NCBI GenBank assembly: GCA_048563625.1
Contig: JBHNNM010000002.1
Span: 5,483 to 69,482, forward strand
Direction of reading: 5' to 3'
Length of the DNA stretch: 64,000 nt
Origin: Gammaproteobacteria bacterium
GTDB taxonomy: Bacteria; Pseudomonadota; Gammaproteobacteria; GRL18
This document shows, one piece after another, positions 5,093 to 59,157 of the stretch. Under the pieces are notes generated by a model, which worked only from the letters and a program-made list of their open reading frames with translations, did not search any database and was not told where the DNA came from. Each line of letters opens with the position of its first letter. The first letter of the stretch is position 1. The position numbers were made by a program, and so were the translations under genes.

Positions 5093-5204
5093 CCCTATTT
5101 GGCCCCCTGATATTTTTTAAAGTTTTCAGCCCGCTCGGCGATCTCTATGGCATGGAGAGGCTTTCCAGCGTCCTTCAATATCTGTATGGCTGCGTCTTGA
5201 ACGT

Positions 5205-7148: not shown

Positions 7149-7642
7149 GGTTGAACTCCCAGTAAAGCCATTGCTGTTTTTAGATCTCCAATCGTCGAGA
7201 ACCATTTTCCACACAACTTCGCAGCCCGAACACAATCGCTGACCTCTGCTGTAGAATTTGGTACTGAAAGCTTTGTATCACTGGGGATCACTATCATTCC
7301 GTTTGGGTTAATTGATAACCGGTCGTTTTTCAGGGAAAAAAGCAAAGCATCCTTCGCGTAGGGAGCTATATTTTTAGCCCGATCAGCAAATCCTACCTTG
7401 ATTGCCGCATTCTCCTCTTTGGTAATCCATGCTGAGAAAGCAGTCCTTGAACTGCGGGGTAGCTTCATCCTTGTTTGAGGGTGCAGAATGAGTGGGAGCA
7501 ATATGAACGGTAACGCATATGGCGCTTCGCATTCATCGTCTTTTTTAAACTCCAAGAGAGCCGTACAAACAAGTAATGAGGTGAATGCAGGATTAAACAG
7601 AGCGGCAACCTCAGGTGATCGTTTTTCCCAACTTCTTAACAT
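7145..7642 (-). CDS. ABC-3C middle component (no recognisable catalytic motif)
   Basis: 165-aa ORF wedged between the effector and the ATPase, with 7-nt and 4-nt overlaps. Size and position match the middle component of ABC-three-component systems. Confidence 0.55.
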   Translation of the reverse strand: MLRSWEKRSPEVAALFNPAFTSLLVCTALLEFKKDDECEAPYALPFILLPLILHPQTRMKLPRSSRTAFSAWITKEENAAIKVGFADRAKNIAPYAKDALLFSLKNDRLSINPNGMIVIPSDTKLSVPNSTAEVSDCVRAAKLCGKWFSTIGDLKTAMALLGVQP

Positions 7643-8835: not shown

Positions 8836-8856
8836 GTGCGGTCTCCATTATTGTGT

Positions 8857-10638: not shown

Positions 10639-11323
10639 GACGACCTCCGTTTCTATACAATGTTTCTGTTGCTCTAACTCCTCGTTGAATCAAGCCGGAA
10701 AGCGTTGTTCGCTTAAAAAAGTCCGGAGGAATGTAAATAGGCTTATCTATTGAAATCCCTTGCAGATTTAACCGGCAGATCTCCCGTTGTGCCTGCTCCT
10801 CCGACTGAACTGCTATGCCAATGATGGAATCCAACGGTATAGGATCTTTCAGCAAAACTTCTGCTTGAATGTCAGTCGGTGCCGATGGCAAGTGCCCCGA
10901 TGGGCGAGAAAAACTAATGCCGGGAGACGTAGTGACATAAAGAGACCTAAATCCTTGAATACCTGTCTGTATGTATCCACCACACGATCTGGCTGCATTG
11001 CAGGGGCAGAAGCATGTGTCTGGGTGCCAGAGATAACTGGGCTTAATCAGCAAAACCACCCAGTCCTTAAATAGGTGGTCATGCTCCCTGACTTTGACGA
11101 AATAATAGGTGTTCGGATATTCAATTGAACAGCAGATCAGATCATCTCTGCCGTCATAGCGATCCGGGTCTGTCGGATTATGAGGCATATCATGACTTTG
11201 AAGAGTCCTTGTTGAACAAAGTCCAAAAGGGTCGTCAAAAATGTGTGCCAAATTCCGAGACTGAGTGAAGTGGCACAACCTTGTGATGCCTCGACTATTA
11301 CATTCCTGCTGAATCTGATTCAT
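10628..11323 (-). CDS. DarT-like (DUF4433-type) ADP-ribosyltransferase toxin candidate
   Basis: 231 aa. ITRLCHFTQSRNLAHIF resembles the DarT IYHITHIDNL start. RYDGRDDLICCSIEYPNTYYF and QAEVLLKDPIPLDSIIGIAV resemble the DarT R... and catalytic-Glu (QAEFLV) segments. ATGA overlap with the upstream helicase stop. Confidence 0.55.
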   Translation of the reverse strand: MNQIQQECNSRGITRLCHFTQSRNLAHIFDDPFGLCSTRTLQSHDMPHNPTDPDRYDGRDDLICCSIEYPNTYYFVKVREHDHLFKDWVVLLIKPSYLWHPDTCFCPCNAARSCGGYIQTGIQGFRSLYVTTSPGISFSRPSGHLPSAPTDIQAEVLLKDPIPLDSIIGIAVQSEEQAQREICRLNLQGISIDKPIYIPPDFFKRTTLSGLIQRGVRATETLYRNGGRHGR

Positions 11324-11601
11324 GGACGGATCTCCTGATAAAGGTTCCCATCCACCGGCAGCAACGAGGTCAATTCATTGCTGTAAAGTAGGATCAGATT
11401 CGTTTTTGCCCGTGTTACCGCAACATAGAGCAAGCGGCCGTCATGAGTCAGGGCATCTTCCTCTCCATGGGATGCCACATGGTCTTTATCCGGTAAATTC
11501 TCAGAATCCAGAAAAGGAAGAATGACCATATCAAACTCAAGCCCTTTGGCCGAGTGATAGGTTCCATGATAGATACCTGGCCCATCATTCCATACCGTCA
11601 A
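11320..11601 (-). CDS. UvrD-like SF1 helicase, C-terminal fragment (same gene as 11730..12722, frame-disrupted)
   Basis: HSAKGLEFDMVILPF and LLYVAVTRAKTNL are helicase motifs V/VI. This frame stays open upstream to about 11800 (…TLAKCSNENQQVELALKAARN…) without a start codon. Confidence 0.75.
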   Translation of the reverse strand: MTVWNDGPGIYHGTYHSAKGLEFDMVILPFLDSENLPDKDHVASHGEEDALTHDGRLLYVAVTRAKTNLILLYSNELTSLLPVDGNLYQEIRP

Positions 11602-11729
11602 GTCACGGTGCAGACGAGTAGCACCTGCACCAAGTTGTGAACTGAATACCTTTTCCTGTTCCCTGTTTTTTACAAGGATGGCAACGCTCTGTGTCGTTGA
11701 GACATTTCTTGCAGCCTTCAGAGCGAGCT

Positions 11730-12722
11730 CTACCTGTTGATTTTCATTGCTGCATTTAGCAAGGGTGGTAGTGCTCCGTCGGCACGAGGCGATGTCGGCT
11801 CAACTAAGTCCGGGATGTCATTGAAAAAAGGCATCCGGGATATGGCCAACCCGAGCTGGGCAATCTGTTTGGTATTTCTATAATTCTCTTTGAATAGCCA
11901 CTGCTGCGGAATGTTTAGACCCGATGAACGCCAGCTCATTCTCTGGCCATAAATCTGCTGAGCTACATCACCGAAAAATGAAAGGGAACCATCCTCTGGT
12001 ATGGCAGCAGCCAAGGAACGAATCATCTCAGGGGAAAAATCCTGCCCTTCATCAATAATGATGTGCTTATACATTCGAGTTGAATCGTCATCCTCGAATT
12101 CTTTCCGCACATGCAAAGCAAGATCATCCCAGTCATACATATTGCCGGTTTGATTGCGTAGTTCGACATACTTCTCGAGGATTTCATACATCACCGGCCG
12201 CAGTTTCCGAGACAGGTTGGTTCCGATACGTCCAACACGATCAATCTTTACATACTCATCGCTCGATGTGATTCCATGACTGAAAATCCACTGGATTTCA
12301 TCCATGAAGAATTCGATGGGCCGCTTGAAGAATTTGGACGGCTCGTATCCTGACTCCACAGCCTTCACCGCTCGTGAAATATATCCCTTTCGCTCATCAG
12401 GGTCGCTGCAGATGCAGTTGAACCGCATTTTACCCCTGACATTCAAATACCCCCGGGCAAAGGTATGATAGGTTTCAATCTGGACATTCCTCAATTCAGC
12501 TGGTTTGAGATACTTCAAATAGGTTACCAGTGCTTTATTGAATGTCAGGAGCAGGGTTTTCCCAGCATGGGGCATTGATGCCTCTGACAAATACGCAGCC
12601 CGGTATAATGCGAGGGTCGTTTTACCGCTGCCAGCAGTTCCCAAAACGGCGGAATGGCCGGTAGCAGGCATGTACAATACCTCTCGCTGCTTTTTGATTG
12701 GCTTTGGTAAATTCCCAGTCAT
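11730..12722 (-). CDS. UvrD-like SF1 helicase, N-terminal fragment
   Basis: Walker A LGTAGSGKTT and motif II IIIDEGQDF. Reading frame is lost near 11765-11800 (CCACCC context). Start lies 2 nt after the hsdR stop. Confidence 0.75.
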   Translation of the reverse strand: MTGNLPKPIKKQREVLYMPATGHSAVLGTAGSGKTTLALYRAAYLSEASMPHAGKTLLLTFNKALVTYLKYLKPAELRNVQIETYHTFARGYLNVRGKMRFNCICSDPDERKGYISRAVKAVESGYEPSKFFKRPIEFFMDEIQWIFSHGITSSDEYVKIDRVGRIGTNLSRKLRPVMYEILEKYVELRNQTGNMYDWDDLALHVRKEFEDDDSTRMYKHIIIDEGQDFSPEMIRSLAAAIPEDGSLSFFGDVAQQIYGQRMSWRSSGLNIPQQWLFKENYRNTKQIAQLGLAISRMPFFNDIPDLVEPTSPRADGALPPLLNAAMKINR

Positions 12723-12724
12723 TT

Positions 12725-15694
12725 CTATCTCACCCCCGTTCCAACTTGATTCGCAGATTGATAAGTGGCTCCGAAGATAGTGTCACCCAGCCATTTCTTG
12801 AAGGAAGGGTCGTCACTGAACTGTTTGAAGAGCTCAGTATGGTCAGCAATCAATTCCACCATGACACGACCGAGGGCTTTATCGTGCTCGATACGGGCAT
12901 TCTGTTTGTCAGAATTTTTCATGGCATTCTGATAAGCTGTATCGGCGGCAACTTTATCGGGAATTTCCTCAGCAATGACTTTTCGAATTTTGTCGGCGTC
13001 TTTCCAGTCGATGTTCCCAAAAAGGTCATTGAAGGTTTTGATGATATTGCTTAGCTGATCTAATTTCGGTTCCGGCTTTCTACCGCCACCAGCGGTCGGC
13101 ACAGCACCCAGCTCCGCATCTTCATCCGCAAGGGTGATATTCATGCTTGCCTGAACTTCAACCCGGTAGCTGTCCATGTCGATCGTTTCAAGAATCCCTT
13201 TTGAGAGATCTTCTTCTTTTGGTGCGGGCAGTTTAGGAATAAGAAAATTCAGGAATATCGAGAGTTTTTCCCAGTCAGCATTGGTGTATGGCAAAATTGA
13301 CGCAAGGAAGCCATATGTCCTGACGAAAGCCTTGGACTTGCCCTTAAAGTCAACCTGTCCATCTTCATCAAGGTCGCTGTTATAGACCGCAACGCAGGCG
13401 TCCAGAATTGGGTCGAGAGTCTCCCGTTCCGCGCCATTCAAATAGAGTTCAACCAATCCATCGATCTGCTCAGGAGAATAAACCTGATAGCCATCCAGAT
13501 CGGACTTCAGGTCGTGAAGCTTGTTGGGATCAGTTTCTTCACTGAGTATGGTCGTGCGGTAATAATCAGAAAATGCCTTCTGGATCACATCAACATCATT
13601 GAAGAAATCCAGAATGAAGGTGTCATGTTTCTTGGGATGAGCCCGATTGAGACGCGACAGAGTCTGGACAGCTTTAATACCGGCAAGCGGCTTATCCACA
13701 TACATTGTGTGCATCAACGGCTCGTCATATCCGGTGAGGAACTTGTCCGCTACAATCAGAATGCGGTATGGTTCCTCGGCAATCCTGTCTTCAATCTTGT
13801 TACTGGGGAAGGCGTTTAGCGTTGCTTCAGTAACCTTTTGACCGCCGTATTCATGCTCACCCGAAAATGCGACGATGGTTTTGTACGGGAGTTTTTTATC
13901 AATCAGATACTCGTTAATGGCATGGAAGTATTCAATGGCTCTCATGATGGCACTGGTGATGACCATCACACGCGCCTGTCCACCGATTTTACGATGTCCC
14001 ATGACCTGTGCGTGGAAATGGTCCATCATGATTTCCGCTTTCTCACGGATCGCATGAGTATTGGACTCCACATATTTCCGTAATTTTTTCTGGGCTTTCT
14101 TGGTGTCGAAAAGCGGATCGCCTTCCACGGTTTTCATCAGCCGATAAAAACTTTCCACCGGTGTGTAGTTCTTCAGCACATCAAGAATAAAGCCTTCCTG
14201 AATGGCCTGCTTCATGGTGTAACTGTGGAATGGATGATGCTTTATCTTGCCGTCCGGCTGTGGATCAGGCTCACCAAAAATTTCCAGTGTTTTGTTTTTC
14301 GGAGTAGCCGTGAACGCAAAATAGCTGGCATTCGTCAGCATTTTACGGCTCTCCATCAACTCGTTGATTTTGTCTTCTGTGCTTTCTTCTTCCTCAGATT
14401 CCGAAATATCCGAAGAGAGAGCCATATTCATTTTCGAGGCAGTGCGGCCGCCCTGGCTGGAGTGTGCTTCATCAATGATGATGGCAAACTTGTTCTGCCT
14501 GTGGTCGTCGCCAATCTCCGCCAGAATGAAAGGGAACTTCTGAACGGTTGTAATGATGATCTGCTTTCCCTCGTTGATGAAGCGGCGCAGGTCACCGGAA
14601 CGCTCCGCATGGCCAACCACGTTGCCAACCTGAGCAAAGGACTTGATGGTGTCCCGGATCTGCTTATCCAAAACACGCCGGTCGGTAACGACAATAATGG
14701 AACCGAAGACCGCTTTTTTCTGCTTTTCCAACCCCACCAGCTGATGAGCCAGCCATGCAATGGAGTTGGACTTACCACTGCCAGCCGAGTGTTGAATCAG
14801 GTAGCGCTTCCCGGCACCTATTTGCTGGGCGTCTGCCAGAAGTTTACGGACCACCGTCAATTGGTGGTAGCGGGGGAATATCTGTTTGTATTTCTTCTTG
14901 CCGGTTTTCTCGTCTTTCTCTTCAACCACCTGCGCGTAGTTTTCCAGAATGTCAGTGAGACGATCCTTCGTCAGAATCTCTTTCCAGAGATAATCGGTGA
15001 CCAGCCCTGCAGGGTTTGGCGGGTTGCCAGCACCATCGTTATAGCCTTTGTTGAAAGGTAGAAAGCACGAATCCTTGCCTTTTAGGTGGGTACACATGCG
15101 TACTTCATGATCATCAACGGCAAAGTGAACAACACAACGGCCGAACTGGAACAGAAGCTCATTGGGGTCGCGGTCATTCTTGTACTGCTGAACAGCATCC
15201 TCGACGGTTTGCTTGGTAAGCTTGTTTTTCAGCTCAAATGTAGCGATGGGCAGGCCGTTAATAAAAACACCCATATCCAGTGCCAACTGAGTCTCGCTGC
15301 CGCTGTAGCGTAACTGACGCGTTACACTGAAAATATTCTGTTCGAACAGCTCCTTGGGTTTCTCATTATTTGCCGTCGGACTGCCGTAAAAGAGCGTTAC
15401 GGAATCCGGGCCGTGTTTCAGACCTTTGCGTAACACATCAACAATGCCCCGTTTGGCAATTTCACCCTGTAGTCGATGAAGGAATTGTGTTCTTTTAGGT
15501 GAATCGATTTCAAGGCTGAGACGCTCCGCAACCTCCGGCTGAGTGCTCTGTATAAACGCCGTCAGCTTGGCGAAGTCAACCGCATGGTCACGATCATAGT
15601 CCTGAGGGTTGCCAGCCTGGTAACCTGCTTCCTCAATTAACGACTTGACGATGGTTGTTTCAAGCCCTGCTTCGCTTGTATCGGTAAATTTCAT
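12725..15694 (-). CDS. hsdR: Type I restriction enzyme R subunit
   Basis: 989 aa. QHSAGSGKSNS Walker A, IIIDEAHSSQ DEAH box, SF2 motor architecture. Overlaps the hsdS stop. Confidence 0.9.
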   Translation of the reverse strand: MKFTDTSEAGLETTIVKSLIEEAGYQAGNPQDYDRDHAVDFAKLTAFIQSTQPEVAERLSLEIDSPKRTQFLHRLQGEIAKRGIVDVLRKGLKHGPDSVTLFYGSPTANNEKPKELFEQNIFSVTRQLRYSGSETQLALDMGVFINGLPIATFELKNKLTKQTVEDAVQQYKNDRDPNELLFQFGRCVVHFAVDDHEVRMCTHLKGKDSCFLPFNKGYNDGAGNPPNPAGLVTDYLWKEILTKDRLTDILENYAQVVEEKDEKTGKKKYKQIFPRYHQLTVVRKLLADAQQIGAGKRYLIQHSAGSGKSNSIAWLAHQLVGLEKQKKAVFGSIIVVTDRRVLDKQIRDTIKSFAQVGNVVGHAERSGDLRRFINEGKQIIITTVQKFPFILAEIGDDHRQNKFAIIIDEAHSSQGGRTASKMNMALSSDISESEEEESTEDKINELMESRKMLTNASYFAFTATPKNKTLEIFGEPDPQPDGKIKHHPFHSYTMKQAIQEGFILDVLKNYTPVESFYRLMKTVEGDPLFDTKKAQKKLRKYVESNTHAIREKAEIMMDHFHAQVMGHRKIGGQARVMVITSAIMRAIEYFHAINEYLIDKKLPYKTIVAFSGEHEYGGQKVTEATLNAFPSNKIEDRIAEEPYRILIVADKFLTGYDEPLMHTMYVDKPLAGIKAVQTLSRLNRAHPKKHDTFILDFFNDVDVIQKAFSDYYRTTILSEETDPNKLHDLKSDLDGYQVYSPEQIDGLVELYLNGAERETLDPILDACVAVYNSDLDEDGQVDFKGKSKAFVRTYGFLASILPYTNADWEKLSIFLNFLIPKLPAPKEEDLSKGILETIDMDSYRVEVQASMNITLADEDAELGAVPTAGGGRKPEPKLDQLSNIIKTFNDLFGNIDWKDADKIRKVIAEEIPDKVAADTAYQNAMKNSDKQNARIEHDKALGRVMVELIADHTELFKQFSDDPSFKKWLGDTIFGATYQSANQVGTGVR

Positions 15695-16998
15695 TCGTCA
15701 ATGCCCTCCGTAATCAGTTCGTCTTCAGACTCTTCATCATCCTGTACTTCCAGATCTGCCTCAACGGGCTCAAAGTCCGGAATTTCTACGGAGCGGACAT
15801 CAACTTTCCCAGTCACCACATCACCAATTATGCGAGAACGTAATTCTTGCAACAGCTTCTCTTCTCTGGCTATATCATTTCTCAAAGCTGTTTCATGGTT
15901 AACCAGCTCTATAATCCGGTTCTGAATATCTATAGGCGGGATTGGAATCTTTTCTTTCATGAGAGTTCTCGCATTTAACGGCCTATTCCGCCCTGCTGCC
16001 CCTCTGGAATGATAATTCAAAACAAGGTGACCAAGTTTTGTTCTGAAAAAAGAAAGAAGATATGCAGAATCTACTATCTCTGATTTTCCTCTAAAAATAG
16101 GGTAACGATGAGATGCAATACAGCCCTCATCATCAGAACCAGCTATGGCTACCGCTCCTTCCCAAGCAAATTGACCGCTAAAAACCAAATCACCCTTTTT
16201 TATCCAAAAGAAAGTAGAGTCGCCTAATTCTGAACCTTTTGTTGGGTTTTTATGAAAAACACCTCTGCCTCTGTTGTACAAGCCAACAGGTGTAAATATT
16301 TCGTCATTTTCTCGATTTACAGGACGTACAATTTGTGTTGCTACAACCCCAAAGCGTAAATGTTTGGTTTCAGGCAGTTTTGCCGCTTCATTTGTTATCG
16401 CATTTCTTCTCTCCGCAAACAGATCAATAAGTTTTTTCTTGTTTTTTATAAACCTATTGATCTTAGCTGTCTGCCAATCCAAATATTTTGCAATTTGATC
16501 CTGCTCAGATCTTGGAGGTAACATGCTAGGAATCTGCCCGAACTGGTCAAAGTAAAGCCTGAGCCGCATATCCATAATGCCACGAGACCAAGCTTTAAAT
16601 TGCTGCAAATATAGTTTTGTCCTAAAAAGGTAATGATAGTAGTCAGGGTTTATATTCTGTACTGCCCGCAGAATGTCGTAAGCAGGACTCGTAACACCTG
16701 AATAATGAGAAACTCCAACTGCTCCCATCCATGCCAAGAGCTTGTTAACAATCAGATCTCCTTTTTTTACAATCCAATAATTGTCAGTTGTGGAAGCTTT
16801 ATTCCCTTTTTGCTCTAAACTATTACGTGGCCTAACTCCAATATGTGTGTATATGGATAACAGCTCTAAATCATGATCTATTCCTGACTTCTCTGTTCTT
16901 AATCGAAAAATGTTTTTGGTTCTAGTGACCTCCCAATGGGAGGGAATATCACCAATCCATGGGACTTTTGAATCTTTATATCGAGGGTAAGTCATCAT
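15691..16998 (-). CDS. hsdS: Type I restriction enzyme S (specificity) subunit
   Basis: 435 aa with two TRD-like halves separated by helical conserved regions. Sandwiched between hsdM and hsdR with 4-nt overlaps. Confidence 0.85.
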   Translation of the reverse strand: MMTYPRYKDSKVPWIGDIPSHWEVTRTKNIFRLRTEKSGIDHDLELLSIYTHIGVRPRNSLEQKGNKASTTDNYWIVKKGDLIVNKLLAWMGAVGVSHYSGVTSPAYDILRAVQNINPDYYHYLFRTKLYLQQFKAWSRGIMDMRLRLYFDQFGQIPSMLPPRSEQDQIAKYLDWQTAKINRFIKNKKKLIDLFAERRNAITNEAAKLPETKHLRFGVVATQIVRPVNRENDEIFTPVGLYNRGRGVFHKNPTKGSELGDSTFFWIKKGDLVFSGQFAWEGAVAIAGSDDEGCIASHRYPIFRGKSEIVDSAYLLSFFRTKLGHLVLNYHSRGAAGRNRPLNARTLMKEKIPIPPIDIQNRIIELVNHETALRNDIAREEKLLQELRSRIIGDVVTGKVDVRSVEIPDFEPVEADLEVQDDEESEDELITEGIDE

Positions 16999-19130
16999 GC
17001 TTGATTCTCCCCAATAATTTTTTCAAGAAGACCGTCGGTTTCCCTCTCTAAAGCAAGAATATCGGCTTTAATTTCTTCTATTGACCTAGTCTGCTCAGGT
17101 TTAAAGAAATGGCGTGTGAAAGAGACTTTATAGCCAATCTGCGTTTTGGAGCCGTCAACCCAGGCATCGGGTGTATAAGGAAGCACCTCCCGTTCGATGA
17201 AGGCGGCAATGCCTCCATCTTCCAGAAGCGGTACCTGCTCCGAATCCCGCAGGTTAGTATCCGGTTCGTATTCAACGACCACCTTTTTGCCGTCTATCGT
17301 TGTGTCGTATAGACCGTAAAGCGGGTTGGGCTCCGCTTTTCCTGCCTTATAAGTTTTCTTGATGACCGGCTCTGCTGATCCATCAATTACCGTCAGATTG
17401 GCTTTCATGAAATTCTTGGATTTGGCCGGAATTTTCACCGCCATGTCTTTGGCCTTGGATTCAATAGCATCTAAGAAGCTGTTGTAATTCAGATGCGGCC
17501 CTTCACCAATTTCACCGGCCACGGCCTCAACAACTGAATAGAGAGCTGTTTCTTTGGCTTCAGTACAAAGTCGCTCGAACCGGCGTAATTTTTGTTCGGT
17601 CAGGTGAACTGATAGGCACAATGGACGCTCGACAATAACCTTTTGATATCCGAATGCCTCTTTTGGAAAAATTTTAGACTGCTCAGTTTGTGCTGGATTA
17701 ACGATGAGCTTGCAAATATCCTGAATGTGATCTTCCGTTAGTTCACAATTTTTTTTGCCCAAGCTCTTTCGAAGTGGCTTAAACCACTCTGTAGCATCAA
17801 CAAGCTGCACCTCTCCCTTGCGTTCACCTGATTTACGGTTTGTCAGAATCCAAATATATGTTGCAATACCGGTGTTGTAGAACATGTTCTCTGGTAGCGC
17901 GATGATCGCTTCAAGCCAGTCGTTTTCAATAATCCAGCGGCGGATATTGCTTTCACCTTGCCCGGCATCACCTGTGAAAAGCGAAGATCCATTGTGAACT
18001 TGGGCAATACGACTGCCAAGCTTGCTCTTTTCCTTCATCTTCATCAGCTTATTAACCAGAAACATCAACTGACCATCACTGGAACGGGTGAGCATTTTGT
18101 ATTCAGGCTCATCCCCATATTCCAGAATGAAGCGAGGGTCTTTCAGATCGCTTTTCCCTCCCATTCGTTCAAGGTCGGTTTTCCAGCTTTTTCCGTAGGG
18201 TGGATTGGAAAGCATGAAATCGAATTGATCAGACACAAAGGCATCGGCTGACAATGTTGAGCCGTATTTGATATTTTCAGCTTCAGCGCCTTCACCTTTG
18301 AGCAAAAGATCGGCTTTGGCGATTGCATAGGTTTCAGGCTGTACCTCTTGGCCGTAAAGATGAATTGAAACTTCCTTGCCTGCCTCTTTTGCAAGTTTTT
18401 GCAATCTTTCTTCAGCAACAGTCAACATCCCGCCGGTTCCGCAAGCTCCGTCATATACCAGATAAGTTCCCGACTCGATTTTGTCAGCAATGGGCAAAAA
18501 GATCAGGTCGGCCATCAGCTTTACCACATCACGAGGCGTAAAGTGCTCTCCGGCTTCTTCGTTGTTTTCTTCGTTAAAGCGGCGGATCAATTCTTCGAAA
18601 ACACTTCCCATACTGTGATTATCCAGCCCGGGAAGTTTTTCATTACCATTAGCATCCAGCACCGGCTTGGGGCTTAGATTGATACTTGGATTCAGATATT
18701 TTTCAATCAGAGCTCCAAGGATGTCAGCATCCACAAGCGTCGGGATCTGGTTGCGGAATTTGAACTTGTCCAGAATCTCCTGAACGTTGGGTGAGAAGCC
18801 ATCGAGATAGGCTTCAAAGTCAGCTTTCAACTGCTGAACTTTGGCTCTGTTTTTCAGGTCTTTGAGGGTAAATGGGGAGCTGTTGAAGAAAGCTTCGCCT
18901 GACGCCTGACACAGGGCTGCGTTCTGATTGGCAATCCCCGCCGAGTCGAGCTGCTTTTTCATATTAAGGACAGCTTCTTTGGTCGGCTCAAGAAGAGCAT
19001 CAAGACGGCGGATAACAGTCATCGGCAGAATCACGTCCCGGTATTTACCACGGACATACACATCTCTCAGGACATCATCTGCAATGTTCCAAATGAAATT
19101 TGTTATTGTATTATGGATACTGTAATTCAT
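16995..19130 (-). CDS. hsdM: Type I restriction enzyme M (N6-adenine methyltransferase) subunit
   Basis: Motif I VYDGACGTGGML and motif IV NPPYGKSW. Track ORF starts at 19187, but MNYSIHNTITNFIWN (ATG 19130) avoids overlap with the upstream HTH gene. Confidence 0.9.
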   Translation of the reverse strand: MNYSIHNTITNFIWNIADDVLRDVYVRGKYRDVILPMTVIRRLDALLEPTKEAVLNMKKQLDSAGIANQNAALCQASGEAFFNSSPFTLKDLKNRAKVQQLKADFEAYLDGFSPNVQEILDKFKFRNQIPTLVDADILGALIEKYLNPSINLSPKPVLDANGNEKLPGLDNHSMGSVFEELIRRFNEENNEEAGEHFTPRDVVKLMADLIFLPIADKIESGTYLVYDGACGTGGMLTVAEERLQKLAKEAGKEVSIHLYGQEVQPETYAIAKADLLLKGEGAEAENIKYGSTLSADAFVSDQFDFMLSNPPYGKSWKTDLERMGGKSDLKDPRFILEYGDEPEYKMLTRSSDGQLMFLVNKLMKMKEKSKLGSRIAQVHNGSSLFTGDAGQGESNIRRWIIENDWLEAIIALPENMFYNTGIATYIWILTNRKSGERKGEVQLVDATEWFKPLRKSLGKKNCELTEDHIQDICKLIVNPAQTEQSKIFPKEAFGYQKVIVERPLCLSVHLTEQKLRRFERLCTEAKETALYSVVEAVAGEIGEGPHLNYNSFLDAIESKAKDMAVKIPAKSKNFMKANLTVIDGSAEPVIKKTYKAGKAEPNPLYGLYDTTIDGKKVVVEYEPDTNLRDSEQVPLLEDGGIAAFIEREVLPYTPDAWVDGSKTQIGYKVSFTRHFFKPEQTRSIEEIKADILALERETDGLLEKIIGENQA

Positions 19131-19140
19131 GTAATTTCCC

Positions 19141-19353
19141 TTACTCTTTGTTGTCTTCCTCTTTGAAATCACTTGCGTTTCCGTCACGCACCCAAGTATC
19201 CACTTCGTCTTTTTTGAACTTCCAAAGACGGCCGATTTTGTGGGCGGGCATGTCTTTTTCGCTTATCCACTTATAGACGGTATCTCGCTTGATCCCGAGA
19301 TAGTCTCCAATTTCATCTACGGACAACCATCTGTCTTCCATTTTCGACTCCAT
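19141..19353 (-). CDS. Small excisionase/AlpA-type (HTH_17/MerR-like) DNA-binding protein heading the R-M operon
   Basis: LSVDEIGDYLGIKRDTVYKWISEKDMPAHKIGRLWKFKKDEVDTWV is a typical HTH_17 sequence. Start is uncertain (19341-19419). Confidence 0.7.
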   Translation of the reverse strand: MESKMEDRWLSVDEIGDYLGIKRDTVYKWISEKDMPAHKIGRLWKFKKDEVDTWVRDGNASDFKEEDNKE

Positions 19354-30537: not shown

Positions 30538-31554
30538 CTAAATTCCTACGCTGCCCGGATTCGACTCAAATTCCATCTGGTTGAGGGCGGTGATCGTTCC
30601 GGTGGTTCCGTTGATTTCAAATACATTCCAGACGGTGCCGGGCTGGTTGGGCACATTGAAGGTGTATTCCCGGCCGTCGTAATAAAATACTTTCACGGTC
30701 GCGCCCGAGCCCGCCAACCCCGTGCTGGTGATCGAGTTCCGGTTGGTGTAATCGTGAACACTGTAGCGATAGGTCCCGGCCACCAGCCGATGCATGGTGA
30801 TGGTCTCCGGCCCGTAAGATGAGGTCTCATCCACATCCAGCTCGCCACAATCCTGCACATAATCCGTCGAGTAATAGACATGAAATGTGCCACCACCCGG
30901 GCGGGGACCGCGCAGATGAGAATCAAGATCCCGGGGATTGAGTCCCCACTGCAGAACGATGCGAGCCACCTGTCCGTTGAGTTCCGGAGAGAGCACAATG
31001 TTCTGGCCGGAGCTTCCGGATTCGAGGACGTTCAGCAGTCCATGGGCATCGATATAGTTGGGCGTGCTCGCCTCGTAGACATAGAGTCCTTCAAACAGCT
31101 CCATTTCATACTGCCCGGATGCATCGGTGATCTGCTGCGCCACGATCGGGCCTTCCTCACTGCGCCGTATGGTTACCAACACGCCAGCAAGCGGCCGGGC
31201 ATTGAGAGCATCCACTACAGAGCCGACAAGATGAACACTGGTGCCCAGATCGAGCAGAAAATCGGGATGATTGGCGAACCACGAGGGATCACGGACCTCA
31301 ACATTCAAATGGCGCAGGCTCTGCCGGGCATCTGAGTTCAAAGCCATGATCATGGCGTTGCCAATCTGCATTCCACTGACCAGAAAGCCCTCGTCATCCA
31401 CATAGGCTACGGCCGGATTGGATGAAACAAACTGCGGGTTCAAACCACTGCCGCGCACAGAGAGCGGGATGCGCTGCTCGAAATAAGATAGAGATAACCG
31501 GACGCTCTGAGGGTAAATCTCCCAATAAGCCGGAATGTCGAGTTGCTCGGTCAT
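30538..31554 (-). CDS. Multi-domain beta-sandwich protein (Big_2-like N-domain, carboxypeptidase-regulatory-like middle, DUF2135-like C-domain)
   Basis: 338 aa. N-terminal ~90 aa are paralogous to ORF 31551..31898. C-terminal WGLNPRDLDSHL ... LDVDETSSYGPETI pattern. Confidence 0.5.
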   Translation of the reverse strand: MTEQLDIPAYWEIYPQSVRLSLSYFEQRIPLSVRGSGLNPQFVSSNPAVAYVDDEGFLVSGMQIGNAMIMALNSDARQSLRHLNVEVRDPSWFANHPDFLLDLGTSVHLVGSVVDALNARPLAGVLVTIRRSEEGPIVAQQITDASGQYEMELFEGLYVYEASTPNYIDAHGLLNVLESGSSGQNIVLSPELNGQVARIVLQWGLNPRDLDSHLRGPRPGGGTFHVYYSTDYVQDCGELDVDETSSYGPETITMHRLVAGTYRYSVHDYTNRNSITSTGLAGSGATVKVFYYDGREYTFNVPNQPGTVWNVFEINGTTGTITALNQMEFESNPGSVGI

Positions 31555-31898
31555 GAGGGCATTTCTCCTTCGTCCCAGCTGTCATCCCATTCTTCATCAT
31601 CTATTTCACCACCGCCTATTGGAGTGCCGTACACTTCAACCTGAACATGTCGAACGCTGAGGCGGTCATCCGAGCGCCAGATCATGACAATGGCAGCGCC
31701 GGGCTGCATACCGCAAATAACATTTCCCGTTTCATCCACTTCGGCGACATCGCTGTTGGACGATTCAAACACCGGCGATTCAACAGAGCCCCGAATGGAC
31801 AGCGGGATAGATTGCGGCAACTCGGAGGTCGAAACGCGGACCAGCTTTGGGAAAACGTCCCAGTATGGTTGTGTTGGTATGCTTGATTCTTCCGGCAT
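31551..31898 (-). CDS. Small Big_2-like domain protein, paralogue of the N-terminus of the next gene
   Basis: 115 aa. The alignable stretch IPLSIRGS...SSN..VA.VD..G.V..GMQ.G.A..M......R.S.RH..VEV is shared with ORF 30538..31554. Confidence 0.5.
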   Translation of the reverse strand: MPEESSIPTQPYWDVFPKLVRVSTSELPQSIPLSIRGSVESPVFESSNSDVAEVDETGNVICGMQPGAAIVMIWRSDDRLSVRHVQVEVYGTPIGGGEIDDEEWDDSWDEGEMPS

Positions 31899-32551: not shown

Positions 32552-33133
32552 TTATGTGTTAATCAATACTTGGTTTGTAGATTTGATGATGATGTTGCCA
32601 ACGACACCATCCATGAAAATGAGGCTTCCCGCCTTGTCGGTTGCGCTGATGCTTTCCGTTCCCGGTGCCGCGTTCATTCTGACCACCTGTCCGGCTTTGT
32701 CGGTCAGGCGGATCTGTTCAGCGCCCTTGGTGGAGTCGATCAGAATTTCCTGCGTGCCGTTGAGTCCCCAGATGTGGACCTTTTCCCGGTCTTTGGTGGT
32801 ATCAATCAGAATCTTCTGCCAACGGGAACGGCCCTTGTCGCAGGAGAGGATGTGAACCTTTTCCTTGTCCTGCCACGCCTCCAGCAGCACCTGCTGACGG
32901 CAGAGGTCAGTGAGTTGTACTCGGGCTTTCGATCCTACGATCTGTGAAGCAATATCGAGCTGGTCGCCTTTTTCGGCATCTTTGGTGCCGCGTCTGAGGG
33001 CGTTGCCGCTCTGCATTTCCGGTTTGACCTTGGCCTCCATGGTGAGGATCTGACCGGCCCGGTCGATCAGGCGCATCAGTTCATCGCCGTCACGATCATC
33101 GGCCAGAATGGTGTGTCCGGTTTCCGTCTTCAT
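32552..33133 (-). CDS. Spike protein (gp5/VgrG/gpV-like) beta-helix C-terminal part; in frame with 33158..33601 across a TAG
   Basis: 193 aa of repeated GH-x-I-x-x-D / DKAG-x-x-I-x-M type beta-helix segments (TGHTILADDRDGDELMRLIDRAGQ, RLTDKAGQVVRM, SATDKAGSLIFM). Confidence 0.75.
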   Translation of the reverse strand: MKTETGHTILADDRDGDELMRLIDRAGQILTMEAKVKPEMQSGNALRRGTKDAEKGDQLDIASQIVGSKARVQLTDLCRQQVLLEAWQDKEKVHILSCDKGRSRWQKILIDTTKDREKVHIWGLNGTQEILIDSTKGAEQIRLTDKAGQVVRMNAAPGTESISATDKAGSLIFMDGVVGNIIIKSTNQVLINT

Positions 33134-33157
33134 CAGGACCCTGAAACGCGGGCAGTA

Positions 33158-33601
33158 CTATTCCGGATGGCCGTGGTATTTCTGGTGTTCGAGATTGTCG
33201 TGGGGATTACTCTGGTGCTCCAGCTTGTCCTCGCAGTCATGGCAGAAGGCATTGCTGCAGGTGCGCTTGGATTCCTCCGGCTGTTCCCCGGGATTGCTCT
33301 TGGCCAGCCAGACTCCGGTCCAGATCGGATACTGAACAATGCCGCCTTCAAACTCGGCCCAGACCGAAGCGCCTTCTTCCGGCACGAGGAACATGCCGCA
33401 ATCTTCATTGCCGCCATACGGAAAACAGGGAGAAGCCCAGTCCGACCAGTTTTCATGGCCAGTACCCAAGACTGCGGGGATTTCGAGTCGAACCCTACCG
33501 AGCCGTTCCGGGTCGTTGTTGTCCTGGACAAAGGCCCGGTACTTGCCGTACCAGCGATTGCGATAGCGTTCTTCGGTCTGCTTGTCGGAAGTCTCAAGCA
33601 T
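33158..33601 (-). CDS. Spike protein (gp5/VgrG/gpV-like) N-terminal OB-fold part, terminated by TAG 33158-33160
   Basis: YGKYRAFVQDNNDPERLGRVRLEIPAVLG ... GMFLVPEEGASVWAEFEGG is the Phage_base_V/gp5 OB-fold pattern. I place the start at MLETSDK (33601). Confidence 0.75.
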   Translation of the reverse strand: MLETSDKQTEERYRNRWYGKYRAFVQDNNDPERLGRVRLEIPAVLGTGHENWSDWASPCFPYGGNEDCGMFLVPEEGASVWAEFEGGIVQYPIWTGVWLAKSNPGEQPEESKRTCSNAFCHDCEDKLEHQSNPHDNLEHQKYHGHPE

Positions 33602-34013
33602 GGCTGTTCTCCCTCCGACGGCTGTCATTCCAAGCTTTCCAGCCACCCACGCGGACGGCCCAATACATCAGTCGGCGTTTCCATGCAGGAACACCGAGCT
33701 TGGTCATCAGTTTGAGAAAGATGCGGTCGGCTTCTGCACGGGTCACGAGTCCGGTGTGATAGAGAAAGTCATGCACAACGGCAGCCGGTGAATAGCGTCC
33801 CCATGGAGGCACAATTCGCCAGAACAGGCGCGGCACCGAGACAAAGTCCGTTTCAAATCCGGCAGGCACAGTAATGGTGCGATTGCCAGCGATCCTGACC
33901 TTGTAGTCTTTGATCAGACGGGCACTGCGGCCATTGGGCAGCAGTTCAAACTGTAAAGGCCCGTTCAGCCCGATTCCCGAGCCGACAGTGACGGTCTTCT
34001 GAAACTCAGTCAT
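33594..34013 (-). CDS. DUF1353-like protein
   Basis: 139 aa. VPAGFETDFVSVPRLFW ... AAVVHDFLY matches the DUF1353 pattern. Confidence 0.6.
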   Translation of the reverse strand: MTEFQKTVTVGSGIGLNGPLQFELLPNGRSARLIKDYKVRIAGNRTITVPAGFETDFVSVPRLFWRIVPPWGRYSPAAVVHDFLYHTGLVTRAEADRIFLKLMTKLGVPAWKRRLMYWAVRVGGWKAWNDSRRRENSHA

Positions 34014-34383
34014 TGCGCCACCTCACTTTCCCGGTGGTCCGGACATCGAGATGGACCCATGACGGATAGATCCCGATGCCGCCTTGTTGAAAGGCCGGTA
34101 TAGCTTCCGCCGCCTTAGCCAGGTCTTCGGCTGTCATTCCATCCGGGCAGGCTACATCGGCAGCCATACCCAAGGTGTGAAAACTTTGGGTTGCTCCGCC
34201 AACAGACTCATTGTGCCGGTTGCAGCGAAAGCCGCTCGTGATGCTCAAGGGCAGGTTCAATTGATCGCGCAGAGCCTGAAGCGCAAAAATCAGTTCAGGA
34301 TGCACCGGAGCCGAATGCCCGCAGCAGTTGGTTCCTTTGCAGGCAAATTCTGACCGACTGAAGTTTTTACTCAGATCTCCCAT
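34006..34383 (-). CDS. Peptidase M15A (YcbK/DUF882-type D-Ala-D-Ala peptidase), probable cell-wall hydrolase
   Basis: 125 aa. FSRSEFACKG, SGFRCNRHNESVGG, SFHTLGMAADV, VHLDV zinc-ligand pattern. Confidence 0.75.
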   Translation of the reverse strand: MGDLSKNFSRSEFACKGTNCCGHSAPVHPELIFALQALRDQLNLPLSITSGFRCNRHNESVGGATQSFHTLGMAADVACPDGMTAEDLAKAAEAIPAFQQGGIGIYPSWVHLDVRTTGKVRWRND

Positions 34384-34391
34384 GGTTCCTC

Positions 34392-35657
34392 CTAAGAAAC
34401 AGCACCGGAATCCGCATCGATGGTCACCATGGCCGGTGGCTCATTCTGCGGGGTTGTCGGTGCTTCTTTATCGTTTGGTTTTCCCTTGCTCTGGGCGGAC
34501 TTGTCTCCGGCACCTTTGCCAAGGGCATTCTTTTTGAGCTTGATCTCACAGGAATAGCCAGATGAGCCGATGCTGTGGCGAACCGAGTGGCAGTAGTAAA
34601 TGCCGGAAAACTTCCGGCCCACACCTTTCACTTCGAGGTTCTTTTTGGCCCGCAGCGACGGAATGCCGATGGTGACGGCGGTGGCCTCGACCTGTTTTAG
34701 TTCGGCCTCTCTGAATTTGCCTTCGGCTGTATCCTGAGCAGGTTCCTGTGCCGGTTCTTCATGAAAGGCTTCGGAACGCTCATAAGCAGGAACGACCTGA
34801 CCGGTTTCCTGTTCTTTGAAACTGCCTTCACCCGTATTGCCATCCACCAGATAAGTCTGCTTGCCCAGCGAGGTCCGCTCGGGAGTCGTGGCATTGTTGG
34901 CTTTATGTTCCACCACATCCTTCTTGCGGGGATCGACCCCGACTGATTTGGTTTCGACCCCGGCGCCTTTGGCTCCCTGTGATTGGGTCGATGGCCTGAA
35001 AGAGCGCAGAACGCCTTTGCGGTCGGTGAAATATTCCAGCGTCAGCAGCGGAGCCTGTTCCAGTTCTCTTGGGTGAAAATGGAGCTCATCATCCTGAATG
35101 AAAAAGGAGTAGCCACTGACACCCTGACCATCCCGGTCACGGGCCTTGGTTGCCAGTTCTTTGAGAAAGACGGCATCGGACTGGTTGCTCTGGGTTACGC
35201 GAAGATGGTGCCCCTTGGTGGCCGTCACAACCGGTTTGAGGCCATTGCCCGAAGCAATCTGCTCGGCTATTTCGGAATAGAGAATGCCCGGCGCGGGTTT
35301 CTGCCAGACCTTCTGGTTTTCCTTTCCGGCCAGCTTGAAGCCTTTGTCGTAGGCTTTGATACGGATGGTGGGGTCGCCGTTTTCTGGAAAATCGTAATCG
35401 ATATCCTTGATGACGGCCTTCTTACGTGGAGAAAGATTGCCCACATAACCGAACCGGGCAATGATCTCGTTGCCTTCCTGAAAAAGCGGATCGTCCACAA
35501 ACTGCAGGTTGCGGTTGGTGATGGACAGCTCGAGAACATCCAGTTCCTCTTCATTGTCGGTGAAGACAAACGAAGTGATTTCCTGAGTGATATCCTTGGA
35601 GAGCGATTTGCCCTCTATCTGAATCAGAAATGTCGGTTTGAATGTATCGAGTTCCAT
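34392..35657 (-). CDS. Baseplate hub / late control gene D-like protein
   Basis: Phage_GPD-like layout (FLIQIEGKSL ... LELSITN ... GIYYCHSVRHSI). ATG 35657 has a GGAGA SD. Confidence 0.7.
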   Translation of the reverse strand: MELDTFKPTFLIQIEGKSLSKDITQEITSFVFTDNEEELDVLELSITNRNLQFVDDPLFQEGNEIIARFGYVGNLSPRKKAVIKDIDYDFPENGDPTIRIKAYDKGFKLAGKENQKVWQKPAPGILYSEIAEQIASGNGLKPVVTATKGHHLRVTQSNQSDAVFLKELATKARDRDGQGVSGYSFFIQDDELHFHPRELEQAPLLTLEYFTDRKGVLRSFRPSTQSQGAKGAGVETKSVGVDPRKKDVVEHKANNATTPERTSLGKQTYLVDGNTGEGSFKEQETGQVVPAYERSEAFHEEPAQEPAQDTAEGKFREAELKQVEATAVTIGIPSLRAKKNLEVKGVGRKFSGIYYCHSVRHSIGSSGYSCEIKLKKNALGKGAGDKSAQSKGKPNDKEAPTTPQNEPPAMVTIDADSGAVS

Positions 35658-35686
35658 GCACGTCTCCGGCTGTTCGCAGTTCACTG

Positions 35687-45983: not shown

Positions 45984-46661
45984 TCATCGAGGGGCATGGA
46001 TGCCGTCAGCAAAATACCTCCTGACTACGCCTTTCTGACGCAGCTCCAGTTTGGTCTGAGGATCGAGATCCCAGCCGCGCAGGTCATTGAAGCGGCGACC
46101 ACGCATGACGATATACTTCACCGACAACTCGAGGTCCTCGATGATGGAGATCGCCTCGTTAAGGGCTTCCTCGGTCAGGGTGTTTCCGGTCACTTCAACG
46201 GTATTGGCAGCCGGAACTGCAGCCGACAATACAGAGATGGTTCTGCGGTCCATCTCTTTTCGAATGGCGTCCGAGGCACTGGTCTGGATATCCATCAGCG
46301 TGCCGATGTTACCGTTCTTGAGGACGGAGATGTCCACCATCGGATTGGAGTGGATGCGGTTGGTCGGAAACTCGACTTCATCCTTGCCGATCTCCTGTTC
46401 CTGCGCTTCACCGTCCTTACTGATCCAGTGGGCTTTGACGGTCGGCTTTTTCTGATAAAGCGGACGTTCACCCTTGGGCAGCGTGTGTTTGGTCAGCAGC
46501 AGCGAGGAGATTTCCTTGCGCCGGATTTCCTGTTCGATCGGAGCGGCAATTGCAGCAGCCAACGCCTGCATCCCTTCCGGAGACTCAAGAGCTTCACTCA
46601 TGAGCCTTGCCATGGTCTCCATGTATTCCTGGCTGTGAATGTTCATTGGGTTGTTCTTCAT
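45984..46661 (-). CDS. Major capsid protein (HK97-fold), first 225 codons; coding signal continues to TAA 45819 through two compensating frame changes
   Basis: Lies after the scaffold and decoration genes. Downstream, the +1 frame reads GGILLTASMPLDEILIIPDEEVGKMPVREKLKAES. The original frame then resumes with RFKTGWLVWSEIGQGITRPDVLARVKLGV*. Confidence 0.7.
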   Translation of the reverse strand: MKNNPMNIHSQEYMETMARLMSEALESPEGMQALAAAIAAPIEQEIRRKEISSLLLTKHTLPKGERPLYQKKPTVKAHWISKDGEAQEQEIGKDEVEFPTNRIHSNPMVDISVLKNGNIGTLMDIQTSASDAIRKEMDRRTISVLSAAVPAANTVEVTGNTLTEEALNEAISIIEDLELSVKYIVMRGRRFNDLRGWDLDPQTKLELRQKGVVRRYFADGIHAPR

Positions 46662-47058: not shown

Positions 47059-48960
47059 TTACTTGATTTCCACGGTTTCGTTCGATTCGTTACCGACACG
47101 GTTGTTGTAGGCAGCCATGAAGCCGCTGCGCAGGCGATCCTCGAGGGAGAGCTTGCGGTCATCCACATCGTGCGGTCTCACCCCGGTGGAACTACGCATG
47201 GGTGTTTCGCTGGATGCTTTGGACTTCTGCTTTTCAGGCTCTTTTTCCGGTTCCGGCTGAGCCTTGGCATCTGCCTTGTGGCTTTTGGCCATCTTTTCAT
47301 AGGCAGCCTCGGTTGCGGCAAAAGCGTCGTCCGACAGTTCCGCCAGACGATTGAGTTCTGTGTCGCGGTCCTCGCCGAAATCCATGCCTTGCTTTTCGAG
47401 CTTTGAGATCAGTTTGTGAGCGCGGGCTTTCGAAGCGGCAGCCTTTTGTTCGGCCTCCAGCTCCTGAATGCGTTTCTGAAGTTCAGCCACCTGAGCTTTT
47501 AGCTGGCGGTTTTCTTTTTCCAGCTCGCCTCCGGGAGCCGGATTGTCTTCCTGCCGTTCCTGTTTTTTCTTAGCGGCGTCGGCGGACGACTCATCTGGTT
47601 TCTTGGTTTTTTCGTCCATAGTTGGATCTCCTTTGGGTTGGTGTGGGGCAGATGGTTCCTGAACCGACGCCACCTGCAGAATGCGGGCATTTTTATCTGC
47701 CCCTTTGCGGTCCAGCAGGCCCAGGCCCGTAAAAGTCACGCTGTGAAGAATCTCGAAGACGGGTTTCCCATCGAGTTCACGGCCCCTAAATTTTCTAAGG
47801 TGAGTGCAGTAATCGGCTTTGCTCTTGAAACGCTTGTGACAGACGGAGCATTCACCTTCTTCATAATCACACTCCATCGATACCTGCGTGATGATGCCTC
47901 GCTTCATGAGCTTGTAGGCCAGCTGGGCATTGGGCGTTTCTCCGGTATAGAGCTCACCCACGCACTCGACCCGACCGCCGATTTCATCTTCCAGATAATC
48001 AGCCGCCACAATCCCGCCGACGATGTCGCCAAACTCCTGCGAGTGCTGAAGATCGACTTTCTTGTTAATGGCGGTCATGTGCCTTGCGGCCAGCTCTTCA
48101 GCGGTGAAATGGTCACCATTCCGATTGGTGCAGGTTCTGCAGAGGATGAAGGTAAACTGGGGATCGCCCGGCAGACCTCCGCTCATCGCTTCGGCGTTCA
48201 GTCCCGCATTCTCATCGAGACAGAGCTCCACCGGGATGGAAGTATGGATATTGGCTGCGGCAGCCATCAGAACAGGCTTTGCCGCCTGATCGGTATCTGC
48301 ATTGGACTGGTTTCCTTTCAGACAAACGAAAAGGCGCTCCTTGGCGCTGGAAGCCTCGCCATGCTTGGAGGTGATCGAATACTTATGGTCCTTGGTCTTC
48401 ATCCGGCTCTGACGCCCCAGACCGCCGATGATCTTTTTCATCTGCTGTTCGTTCGGATAGGCGTGGTCGCGGTATGAAATAAGCCAGTGCGGGATATGGG
48501 TGGCGTTACCGAGAAACTCCTGAAAGAAGTCGGAGGCGTTGCCCTTGGTGACTGTCACATGGCTGGTTTCATAGTTTTTGACCTTGGTATCCGCCTTGAT
48601 GGTAAGGCCGTCCCAATAGGTCATCAGCCCTTCGACAAAGTGATAGGCTTTCTCGTAATTGGTGGTCGAAAACTCGGTGGCATACGGCGGATCAAAGTAA
48701 GCGAGGTCAGCCTTCACCTTGGGAAGGATCTCGTTAACATCCCCGCGATAGGCTTTGTTCTCCTTGCCGTTATCGAGTATCAGGGCGTTGATCCGCTCGA
48801 TATTCGCTTTCAGGCGTTTTTTGAATTCATCAGGTGTGTCCTGACGCTTGCCGTAATCGGTGGAAGACGAGAAGTGGCCGAAGCCGCCTTTGCCGCTCAT
48901 GCAGGTTTTGCCGAGAGCAAAAGCGCGATGTCCTTTTTGTATCCGGACAGATCGTCGCAA
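47059..48960 (-). CDS. C-terminal half of a Dam-like N6-adenine DNA methyltransferase fused in frame to an XkdF-like prohead protease domain and a coiled-coil scaffold domain
   Basis: ADLAYFDPPYATEF (motif IV). NRNGDHFTAEELAARHMTAINKKVDLQHS ... GIITQVSMEC resembles S78/XkdF proteases. ELEKENRQLKAQVAELQKRIQELEAEQKAAASKARA is the coiled coil. There is no stop between the domains. Confidence 0.6.
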   Translation of the reverse strand: MRRSVRIQKGHRAFALGKTCMSGKGGFGHFSSSTDYGKRQDTPDEFKKRLKANIERINALILDNGKENKAYRGDVNEILPKVKADLAYFDPPYATEFSTTNYEKAYHFVEGLMTYWDGLTIKADTKVKNYETSHVTVTKGNASDFFQEFLGNATHIPHWLISYRDHAYPNEQQMKKIIGGLGRQSRMKTKDHKYSITSKHGEASSAKERLFVCLKGNQSNADTDQAAKPVLMAAAANIHTSIPVELCLDENAGLNAEAMSGGLPGDPQFTFILCRTCTNRNGDHFTAEELAARHMTAINKKVDLQHSQEFGDIVGGIVAADYLEDEIGGRVECVGELYTGETPNAQLAYKLMKRGIITQVSMECDYEEGECSVCHKRFKSKADYCTHLRKFRGRELDGKPVFEILHSVTFTGLGLLDRKGADKNARILQVASVQEPSAPHQPKGDPTMDEKTKKPDESSADAAKKKQERQEDNPAPGGELEKENRQLKAQVAELQKRIQELEAEQKAAASKARAHKLISKLEKQGMDFGEDRDTELNRLAELSDDAFAATEAAYEKMAKSHKADAKAQPEPEKEPEKQKSKASSETPMRSSTGVRPHDVDDRKLSLEDRLRSGFMAAYNNRVGNESNETVEIK

Positions 48961-49445
48961 TTGGCTCTCAACGAATCGATGAGTGCGTGGACACCTTTGG
49001 CAAAGAAGATCCCTTTGAAATTGTCCTGAACAAAGGTTTTGGCTTTGGGGTTGTCCGCCAGCAGCTTTTCGATCTCCGCTTCGGACAGTCTCGTCGAGCT
49101 GTTTTCGATAATGGCTTTGACTGCGTGGTGACTGTAACGAAGACGGTCATTGGCAAAAACTCGCAGCCCTTTGGATTTGTACATGTAAGCAACAACGGCC
49201 GAGCCGGAAAAGGCATCCAGAACGGAGGAAACTCCGTCCGGGGTGTTACGCCAGATCCAGTCGACCAGTTTCTGTTTGCTGCCGATGTAATTGGTGATGT
49301 ACTTGGGGCGTTTCTCCGGGGGCTGCTCTTCAGGAGCCTTCTGTTCAGCTGCATCGGTCCCGAGCTCGTCGGGATCGATAGCGAGCGCCGCATCTGCCTC
49401 AAGGAGGAACGCCAGCCTTTCCAGGTCAGTGGCAAACATTTCCAT
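48897..49445 (-). CDS. N-terminal half of the Dam-like methyltransferase (frame-disrupted from 47059..48960)
   Basis: YIGSKQKLVDWI and LDAFSGSAVVAY (motif I). ATG 49445 has a GGAGA SD. The frame changes in the T4 run near 48925-48935. Confidence 0.65.
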   Translation of the reverse strand: MEMFATDLERLAFLLEADAALAIDPDELGTDAAEQKAPEEQPPEKRPKYITNYIGSKQKLVDWIWRNTPDGVSSVLDAFSGSAVVAYMYKSKGLRVFANDRLRYSHHAVKAIIENSSTRLSEAEIEKLLADNPKAKTFVQDNFKGIFFAKGVHALIDSLRANCDDLSGYKKDIALLLSAKPA

Positions 49446-58755: not shown

Positions 58756-59157
58756 CTAGGAACTGTTGACGCCGCCGCCATCCTCGAAATGCAGAAGAAG
58801 CCAGAATTCAAACTTCGGATTACTGAGTGCAAACCCATAGTTATCCGCTTGCTGGGACCATTGATGCAGCTGGGACAGTTGTTCGTCAGTCCATTGGTCT
58901 TTGTCGACCACCAGCCATGCTTCATCCGACTTTTTCAATCCTTCCTTTTTCAGGTGCTTTTCCATTCTGGCAAGCACCTGAGGCGGCGAACTGTCGTGTT
59001 TACCCTTTAGACAATTCACCCGAATGACGGAATTTTGATCGTTGAATACAGCAAAGTACTGCGGCTCTGTTTTAATGCCTTCAACAGCCAGTATGAACAT
59101 CTTCCGATAACGGCGTTCACCCAGCGGACGACTGAATTTTCTTCTTTTGGGAGGCAT
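58756..59157 (-). CDS. RloB-like (AbiLii-like) protein, ending at an in-frame TAG; homology continues to TAA 58552
   Basis: [15 protein letters not shown] ... WLVVDKDQW ... [19 protein letters not shown] is the RloB pattern. After the TAG the same frame reads ICSQKLERHLPGYDKGIDVRKISDTMIADAIRRAR... ATGA overlap with the ATPase stop. Confidence 0.7.

Follow-up and report, generated by a model that had tools for sequence, protein, structure and literature searches.

A probable lineage-specific nonsense mutation in the central spike gene of a decaying myovirus-type prophage

We analyzed a 64-kb stretch of contig JBHNNM010000002.1 (hereafter, the window), in which an in-frame amber codon separates the two halves of a phage tail-spike gene. 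The TAG is most probably a lineage-specific nonsense mutation, Tyr148 TAC to TAG, in the central spike gene of a myovirus-type prophage, a reading to which we give a probability of about 0.88. An initial annotation of the window had listed a nonsense mutation in an essential virion gene among several explanations. The comparison with relatives supports the nonsense mutation, as the mapped DNA relatives carry TAC at this position and the protein homologues Tyr (rarely Phe), and the capsid gene and another head gene of the window prophage are frameshifted. The gene is indeed of the spike family. Whether a live virion depends on it is doubtful, given that other lesions already disable the prophage. 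The best reading is that the spike gene of the window lineage is a pseudogene of a decaying prophage.

According to this reading, a single C-to-G change converted the conserved Tyr148 codon TAC into TAG. Translation would most likely stop there and yield a 147-residue OB-fold fragment without the putative beta-helix needle, and re-initiation at ATG 33133 would provide at most traces of a C-terminal fragment. The prophage would already be non-functional, its capsid gene and a large head-module gene having been frameshifted by deletions. The spike would then not be made in full length, and the element probably no longer produces particles, because a broken capsid gene would allow no virions whatever the state of the spike gene.

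Layout and family of the interrupted spike gene

On the minus strand of the window, the N-terminal open reading frame (ORF) starts at ATG 33601, which has a strong Shine-Dalgarno (SD) sequence (GGAGGGAG) on its 5' side, and extends over 147 codons (33161..33601) to CAT CCG GAA. The TAG at 33160..33158 follows as codon 148 and differs from the Tyr codon TAC of the relatives by C to G at the third position. Downstream of it lie TAC TGC CCG CGT TTC AGG GTC CTG, eight sense codons (YCPRFRVL; 33134..33157, minus strand) that include residues conserved in the alignments, and then ATG 33133, from which 193 codons lead to the TAA at 32552 (32552..33133, minus strand). This C-terminal frame contains no further stops or indels. 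Both ORFs lie in one frame, the spacer consists of the single TAG and the eight codons, and the lower bounds of the ORFs are 606 nt apart (33158-32552). The frame, the YCPRFRVL spacer, and the offset given in the initial annotation were thereby all reproduced.

The 147-codon ORF, which comprises the OB fold and most of a Cys/His-rich linker and corresponds to residues 1-147 of 349-aa homologues, matched Pfam PF04717 (Phage_base_V) at residues 21-98 with an E value of 2.7e-18 (66.5 bits; cut-off, 23.8). The 193-codon ORF, which consists of short beta-strand repeats and corresponds to residues 157-349 of the homologues, gave no Pfam or PHROG match of its own in profile searches. In a protein homology search, the read-through fusion of the two ORFs matched approximately 100 single proteins of 327-368 aa with coverages of 95-100%. 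The best homologue was exactly 349 aa long and 92% identical, and the full-length 349-aa homologues were matched over 100% of the length with an E value of 2.4e-224. Because the fusion matches full-length homologues end to end, the adjacent OB-fold and beta-repeat ORFs are not a chance juxtaposition. In distant cultured-phage relatives as well, both sides of the site lie within one annotated gene; the "baseplate hub and tail lysozyme" of Bacillus phage HSE3, for instance, spans residues 14-260 of the fusion query. The window sequence and the fusion homology together bear out that TAG 33158-33160 interrupts a spike gene in frame, and the PF04717 match and the homologue alignment agree with the earlier placement of the split between the OB fold and the beta-strand-repeat half. 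The possibility that related phages encode two separate proteins, which the annotation had named as a refuting case, was also tested. The approximately 100 homologues were all single proteins, and the split is not a natural two-gene arrangement.

By domain and gene context, the split gene belongs to the gpV/gp45/gp5 spike family. With P2 gpV, Mu gp45, T4 gp5, and the gp5-like C-terminal part of the type VI secretion (T6SS) protein VgrG, it shares an N-terminal OB fold (PF04717), after which come beta-strand repeats that would form the needle. As with other contractile-tail spikes, the gene is located between a gpD/gp27-like hub gene (phrog_52; 34392..35684) and a PAAR gene (PF05488; 31909..32175), past which gp25-, J-, and I-like baseplate genes (gp25, Baseplate_J, and Tail_P2_I) follow in the same order as in the relative L002. 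Unlike those spikes, the window gene is interrupted by an amber codon, in one lineage only, and its family is distinguished by a conserved Cys/His-rich linker and has no solved close relative. A search by sequence gave no informative PDB relative of the family, the best match being 9gtr with an E value of 0.15. In an AF2 monomer model of the intact homologue P0001, regular short beta strands occupied residues 153-340, and the pLDDT was mostly >88 beyond residue 210; the N-terminal half was modeled poorly (pLDDT <50). Foldseek searches with this model returned weak matches to the phiKZ central spike 6orj (E value, 6.7e-3) and to VgrG chains. The predicted fold is compatible with a beta-helix needle in the C-terminal half.

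In the protein alignment with intact homologues, the TAG falls in a column of conserved Tyr, rarely Phe, within the motif H-x-H-P-x-Y-Y-C-P-R. C150, P151, R152, V155, and L156 are at least 90% conserved in alignments A1 and A2. The C150-P151-R152 stretch is nearly invariant, and neither fragment would contain it if the spike were expressed in two pieces. The TAG also cuts in two a conserved Cys/His cluster composed of C115, C120, C123, H139, H143, H145, and C150. These residues belong to the Cys/His-rich linker between the OB fold and the beta-strand repeats (spike residues ~115-150; window 33134..33260, minus strand), which has no solved homologue and was modeled at low confidence; in this spike family, the linker may bind a metal.

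Two observations concern the neighboring genes. Between hub and spike, the region 33594..34383 (minus strand) encodes an M15 peptidase and a DUF1353 protein (phrog_1158, "tail assembly chaperone"), an arrangement conserved in the relatives L002 and L003; the pair may represent a tail-associated lysin that replaces the lysozyme domain of T4 gp5. Downstream of the PAAR gene, a small gene at 31551..31898 (minus strand) carries a 42-nt in-frame insertion at 31570 relative to nine relatives, and the genes after it encode proteins of 338 and 296 aa, compared with 249 and 315 aa in L002.

Origin of the TAG and its function as a stop codon

To collect DNA relatives, IMG/VR, JGI metagenomes, and GTDB genomes were scanned for an exact pattern that allowed any base (N) at the third codon position, and the contigs of the closest protein homologues were added (13 mapped relatives in total). 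All 13 had TAC at spike codon 148 with otherwise almost identical flanks, and they were 84-95% identical to the window across the 1050-nt spike gene without a gap. Those from genomes include a contig of Desulfatitalea alkaliphila strain M08but, the chromosome of a Geopsychrobacteraceae MAG, and a Phycisphaerae MAG. TAG at codon 148 occurred only in the window's own lineage, and the change from TAC is, by this comparison, a lineage-specific C-to-G transversion that is apparently fixed.

In an assembly of metagenomic origin, a difference of one base might in principle reflect an error. However, the exact 147-aa product is encoded on 11 contigs, namely six long contigs of NCBI assemblies, of which the longest reaches 98 kb, and five Logan contigs. 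The six from NCBI share the TAG and its flanks exactly with Logan assemblies from several separate runs. The contigs retrieved from the same lineage, those of GCA_048563725.1 (JBHNNR010000001.1, 65,835 nt) and of the Logan runs SRR30622049, -075, -095, and -096, all read TAG, and one Logan contig with the truncated spike was common to nine samples. Read in reverse complement, positions 187..64186 of JBHNNR010000001.1 give the window. Because the identical truncated product recurs across separate assemblies, the TAG is real and not a read error. The probability of a sequencing or assembly artifact is next to negligible; to the extent that independent assemblies can decide the matter, this explanation is already refuted.

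Several 193-aa protein calls from other samples, which begin with MKTETG (e.g., P0110 and P0130), had the appearance of a recurrent split. This candidate was rejected on the DNA of the four contigs checked, which either had TAC at the codon or ended just upstream of it, so that these calls are artifacts of contig ends or gene calling. Further calls of this kind are P0131, P0132, P0136, P0139, and P0141.

We then considered how TAG is read in the window. In the greedy gene set, nine minus-strand ORFs terminate in TAG. This codon ends the hub, gp25, baseplate-J, and orf338 genes, and relatives keep a stop at the same positions; at the end of gp25, TAG and TAA interchange among relatives. Genome-wide reassignment of TAG was ruled out by this stop-codon usage and by the conserved TAG terminators. 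ARAGORN detected no tRNA gene across the 64 kb of the window. A search of the window for long stop-free segments in the same frame separated by TAG revealed no second gene interrupted by this codon. It returned two further pairs of such segments, gp25/baseplate-J and primase/orf145. The former was rejected as one split gene, the two being separate genes in L002, and inspection of the latter boundary revealed nothing that links both ORFs into one gene.

Some full-length spike would nevertheless be made if the host had an amber-suppressor tRNA or pyrrolysine machinery that decodes UAG, or if near-cognate tRNAs read through it at a low level. The reading frame past the TAG is intact, and relatives of the prophage occur in Desulfobacterota-type anaerobes. 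Pyrrolysine machinery is known in some sulfate-reducing Deltaproteobacteria, and pyl genes are present in some members of the group. In addition, one report describes in-frame stop codons that are read through as widespread in bacteria (PMC7918605). Against this stand the conserved true TAG terminators in the same operon, the lack of a tRNA gene over 64 kb, the interruption of a single gene, and the conservation of the TAG in none of the relatives. The base directly 3' of the spike TAG is T, and UAG followed by T is an efficient termination context in E. coli. The likeness to code 15, in which TAG is read as Gln, or to pyrrolysine decoding is an in-frame TAG in a late structural gene and is superficial only, as the window has one unconserved TAG, neighboring genes terminated by TAG, and no suppressor tRNA. 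In known phage recoding under code 15, in-frame TAGs are numerous and the phage usually supplies suppressor tRNAs (10.1101/2021.08.26.457843; PMC9523058), and neither feature was seen in the window. We thus give the decoding of UAG in the spike gene hardly any weight. Programmed amber readthrough, which the initial annotation had proposed as a source of short and long spike forms, gained no support from a TAG that occurs in no relative and is followed by T, and the proposed decoding of UAG as an amino acid gained none within the window, where TAG is a true terminator nearby.

Lesions and surroundings of the prophage

The gene set of the window is that of a myovirus-type phage, with primase, terminase, portal, Mu-F-like protein, major head protein, sheath, tube, tape measure, hub, M15 peptidase, DUF1353, spike, PAAR, gp25-, J-, and I-like baseplate proteins, and fiber proteins. 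The contig of the window ends inside SbcC, and other assemblies of the same lineage continue through SbcC into DUF6880, PRiA4, and RhuM genes. Because the contig runs into these non-phage genes (up to 98 kb in the longest contig with the allele), the element is an integrated prophage; a free complete phage genome was ruled out by the non-phage genes that flank the element in other assemblies.

The prophage carries further lesions, and they lie in the head region. The major capsid gene (45984..46661, minus strand; phrog_2522) is truncated and encodes 225 aa, compared with 287 aa in 80 relatives from IMG/VR. Its ORF matched the phrog_2522 major head protein profile with an E value of 3e-70 at profile positions 29-248 of 318 only. 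Through a 14-nt deletion at ~46018, the frame runs into a TGA; another 7 nt are missing further downstream, at ~45912. The truncated capsid product is present on the same six long contigs as the truncated spike. A large gene of the head module that encodes a DNA-methyltransferase fusion is also frameshifted, by a 1-nt deletion at ~48921 (48915..48927, minus strand) where 13 relatives have an extra G. No stop interrupts this gene over 817-862 codons in L028, L037, and L039; in the window, the stop-free reading is divided between two overlapping segments of 204 and 695 codons. The corresponding ORFs are at 48968..49435 and 47059..48960 (minus strand), and the 633-aa ORF matched phrog_27806 from profile position 176 only. 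In the relative L036, the gene is split at a different place. In total, a comparison of indels with 15-18 close relatives revealed three frame-breaking deletions in the head region of ~7 kb. In the tail module (~23-43 kb), no frame-breaking indel was found where relatives cover it, few or none of them reaching 19.9-25.5 kb and 39.5-43 kb, and the lengths of the tail genes are those of the intact relative L002.

These lesions resemble those of cryptic-prophage pseudogenes, with which the window shares lineage-specific lesions (one nonsense mutation and three deletions) in essential virion genes whose orthologues are intact in relatives. The difference is that decay in the window is early, as most genes retain their full length and, the spike aside, the tail module is intact.

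We also examined substitutions unique to the window. In the spike gene, nine were synonymous and six non-synonymous, a ratio similar to that of intact relatives, with numbers too small to discriminate. They include R26Q, which places Q at a position occupied by R in all 44 homologues of alignment A2. The ratio of non-synonymous to synonymous window-unique substitutions was 82:225 in tail genes and 31:37 in head genes, a comparison confounded by the far larger number of relatives that cover the head. No relaxation of selection on the spike was measurable from the window-unique substitutions, which means that the mutation arose recently or else that the gene still has a role. The lack of frame-breaking indels in the covered parts of the tail module and the clean C-terminal spike frame fit a recent mutation.

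Several observations on the surroundings of the prophage stand apart from the spike gene. A dense defense island adjoins the tail-fiber end of the prophage (1..19200, minus strand). It comprises SbcCD, AAA_13, DUF3732/LmuB_C, ABC-3C (MC3 and CTD7/Cap4-nuclease), a type I restriction-modification system (HsdM/S/R), and DarT together with a DarG-like ADP-ribosylglycohydrolase fused to a glyoxalase domain. Within this island, an apparent remnant of a UvrD-like helicase gene (11320..12722, minus strand) lacks the middle of the gene: a 330-aa ORF retains the N-terminal helicase domain, and a 93-aa ORF matched only the last ~60 positions of UvrD_C. Inside the early region of the phage, an AAA_21 ATPase and RloB form a pair at 58756..60485 (minus strand). 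Furthermore, the carriers of very similar prophages are assigned to different phyla (L017, L018, and L019; P0160, P0161, P0166, and P0137): Desulfatitalea alkaliphila, Geopsychrobacteraceae and Syntrophotaleaceae MAGs, a Phycisphaerae MAG, and Pontiella/Verrucomicrobia bacterium S94. The spike DNA of three genome loci is 92-95% identical to that of the window, and the capsid proteins, the latter four of these entries, fall within the window's 90%-identity cluster. Such likeness across phyla suggests that the host range is unusually broad, that transfer was recent, or that MAGs were binned wrongly.

A two-piece spike, a retained tail, and the meaning of the mutation

The broken head genes, together with a tail module that has no frame-breaking indel and whose gene lengths match L002, raise the question of whether the split of the spike is tolerated. 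In that case, an OB-fold fragment and a beta-helix fragment re-initiated at ATG 33133, 24 nt past the stop, would assemble non-covalently. Such a spike would resemble T4 gp5*/gp5C, and the tail module would perhaps have been kept as a tailocin after loss of the head. The C-terminal ORF is intact, and its ATG is close to the stop. The lower ratio of non-synonymous to synonymous window-unique substitutions in the tail than in the head points the same way, although the contrast is confounded by the deeper sampling of relatives in the head region. There is also a precedent: T4 gp5 is cleaved during maturation into gp5* and gp5C and functions as these two chains, so that an OB-fold-containing piece and a separate beta-helix piece would be common to both. 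However, the T4 split is post-translational and takes place after folding of the trimer with no loss of residues, whereas the split in the window would drop conserved residues, and its second piece would need inefficient re-initiation. In particular, C150-P151-R152 and the rest of the Cys/His cluster would be lost or separated. ATG 33133 has no dedicated SD sequence; it is preceded only by a weak SD-like cAGGGtcctgATG, which is unchanged coding sequence (cAGGGtcctg) shared with intact relatives, whereas genuine genes of the operon have a GGAGG-type SD. Moreover, no relative has two genes, the split is unique to one lineage, and the 193-aa calls checked elsewhere proved to be contig-end artifacts. 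A tolerated split is accordingly very unlikely. We regard as highly improbable the related scenario in which the tail module has been kept as a tailocin-like particle after loss of the head, with the spike either in two pieces or supplied through low-level amber suppression in the host. If true, the window would hold a naturally split central spike that resembles T4 gp5*/gp5C but is encoded as such.

The preferred reading thus remains a nonsense mutation in a decaying prophage, and nonsense decay of a prophage gene is an already known kind of event. The result is mainly a clean negative: a TAG in a phage structural gene invites ideas of recoding, pyrrolysine, or readthrough, and comparison with relatives shows a plain nonsense mutation. 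It has no bearing on open questions of decoding or spike assembly. For annotation, it means that the two ORFs belong in a single entry, a spike pseudogene, and that the element should be labeled a defective prophage.
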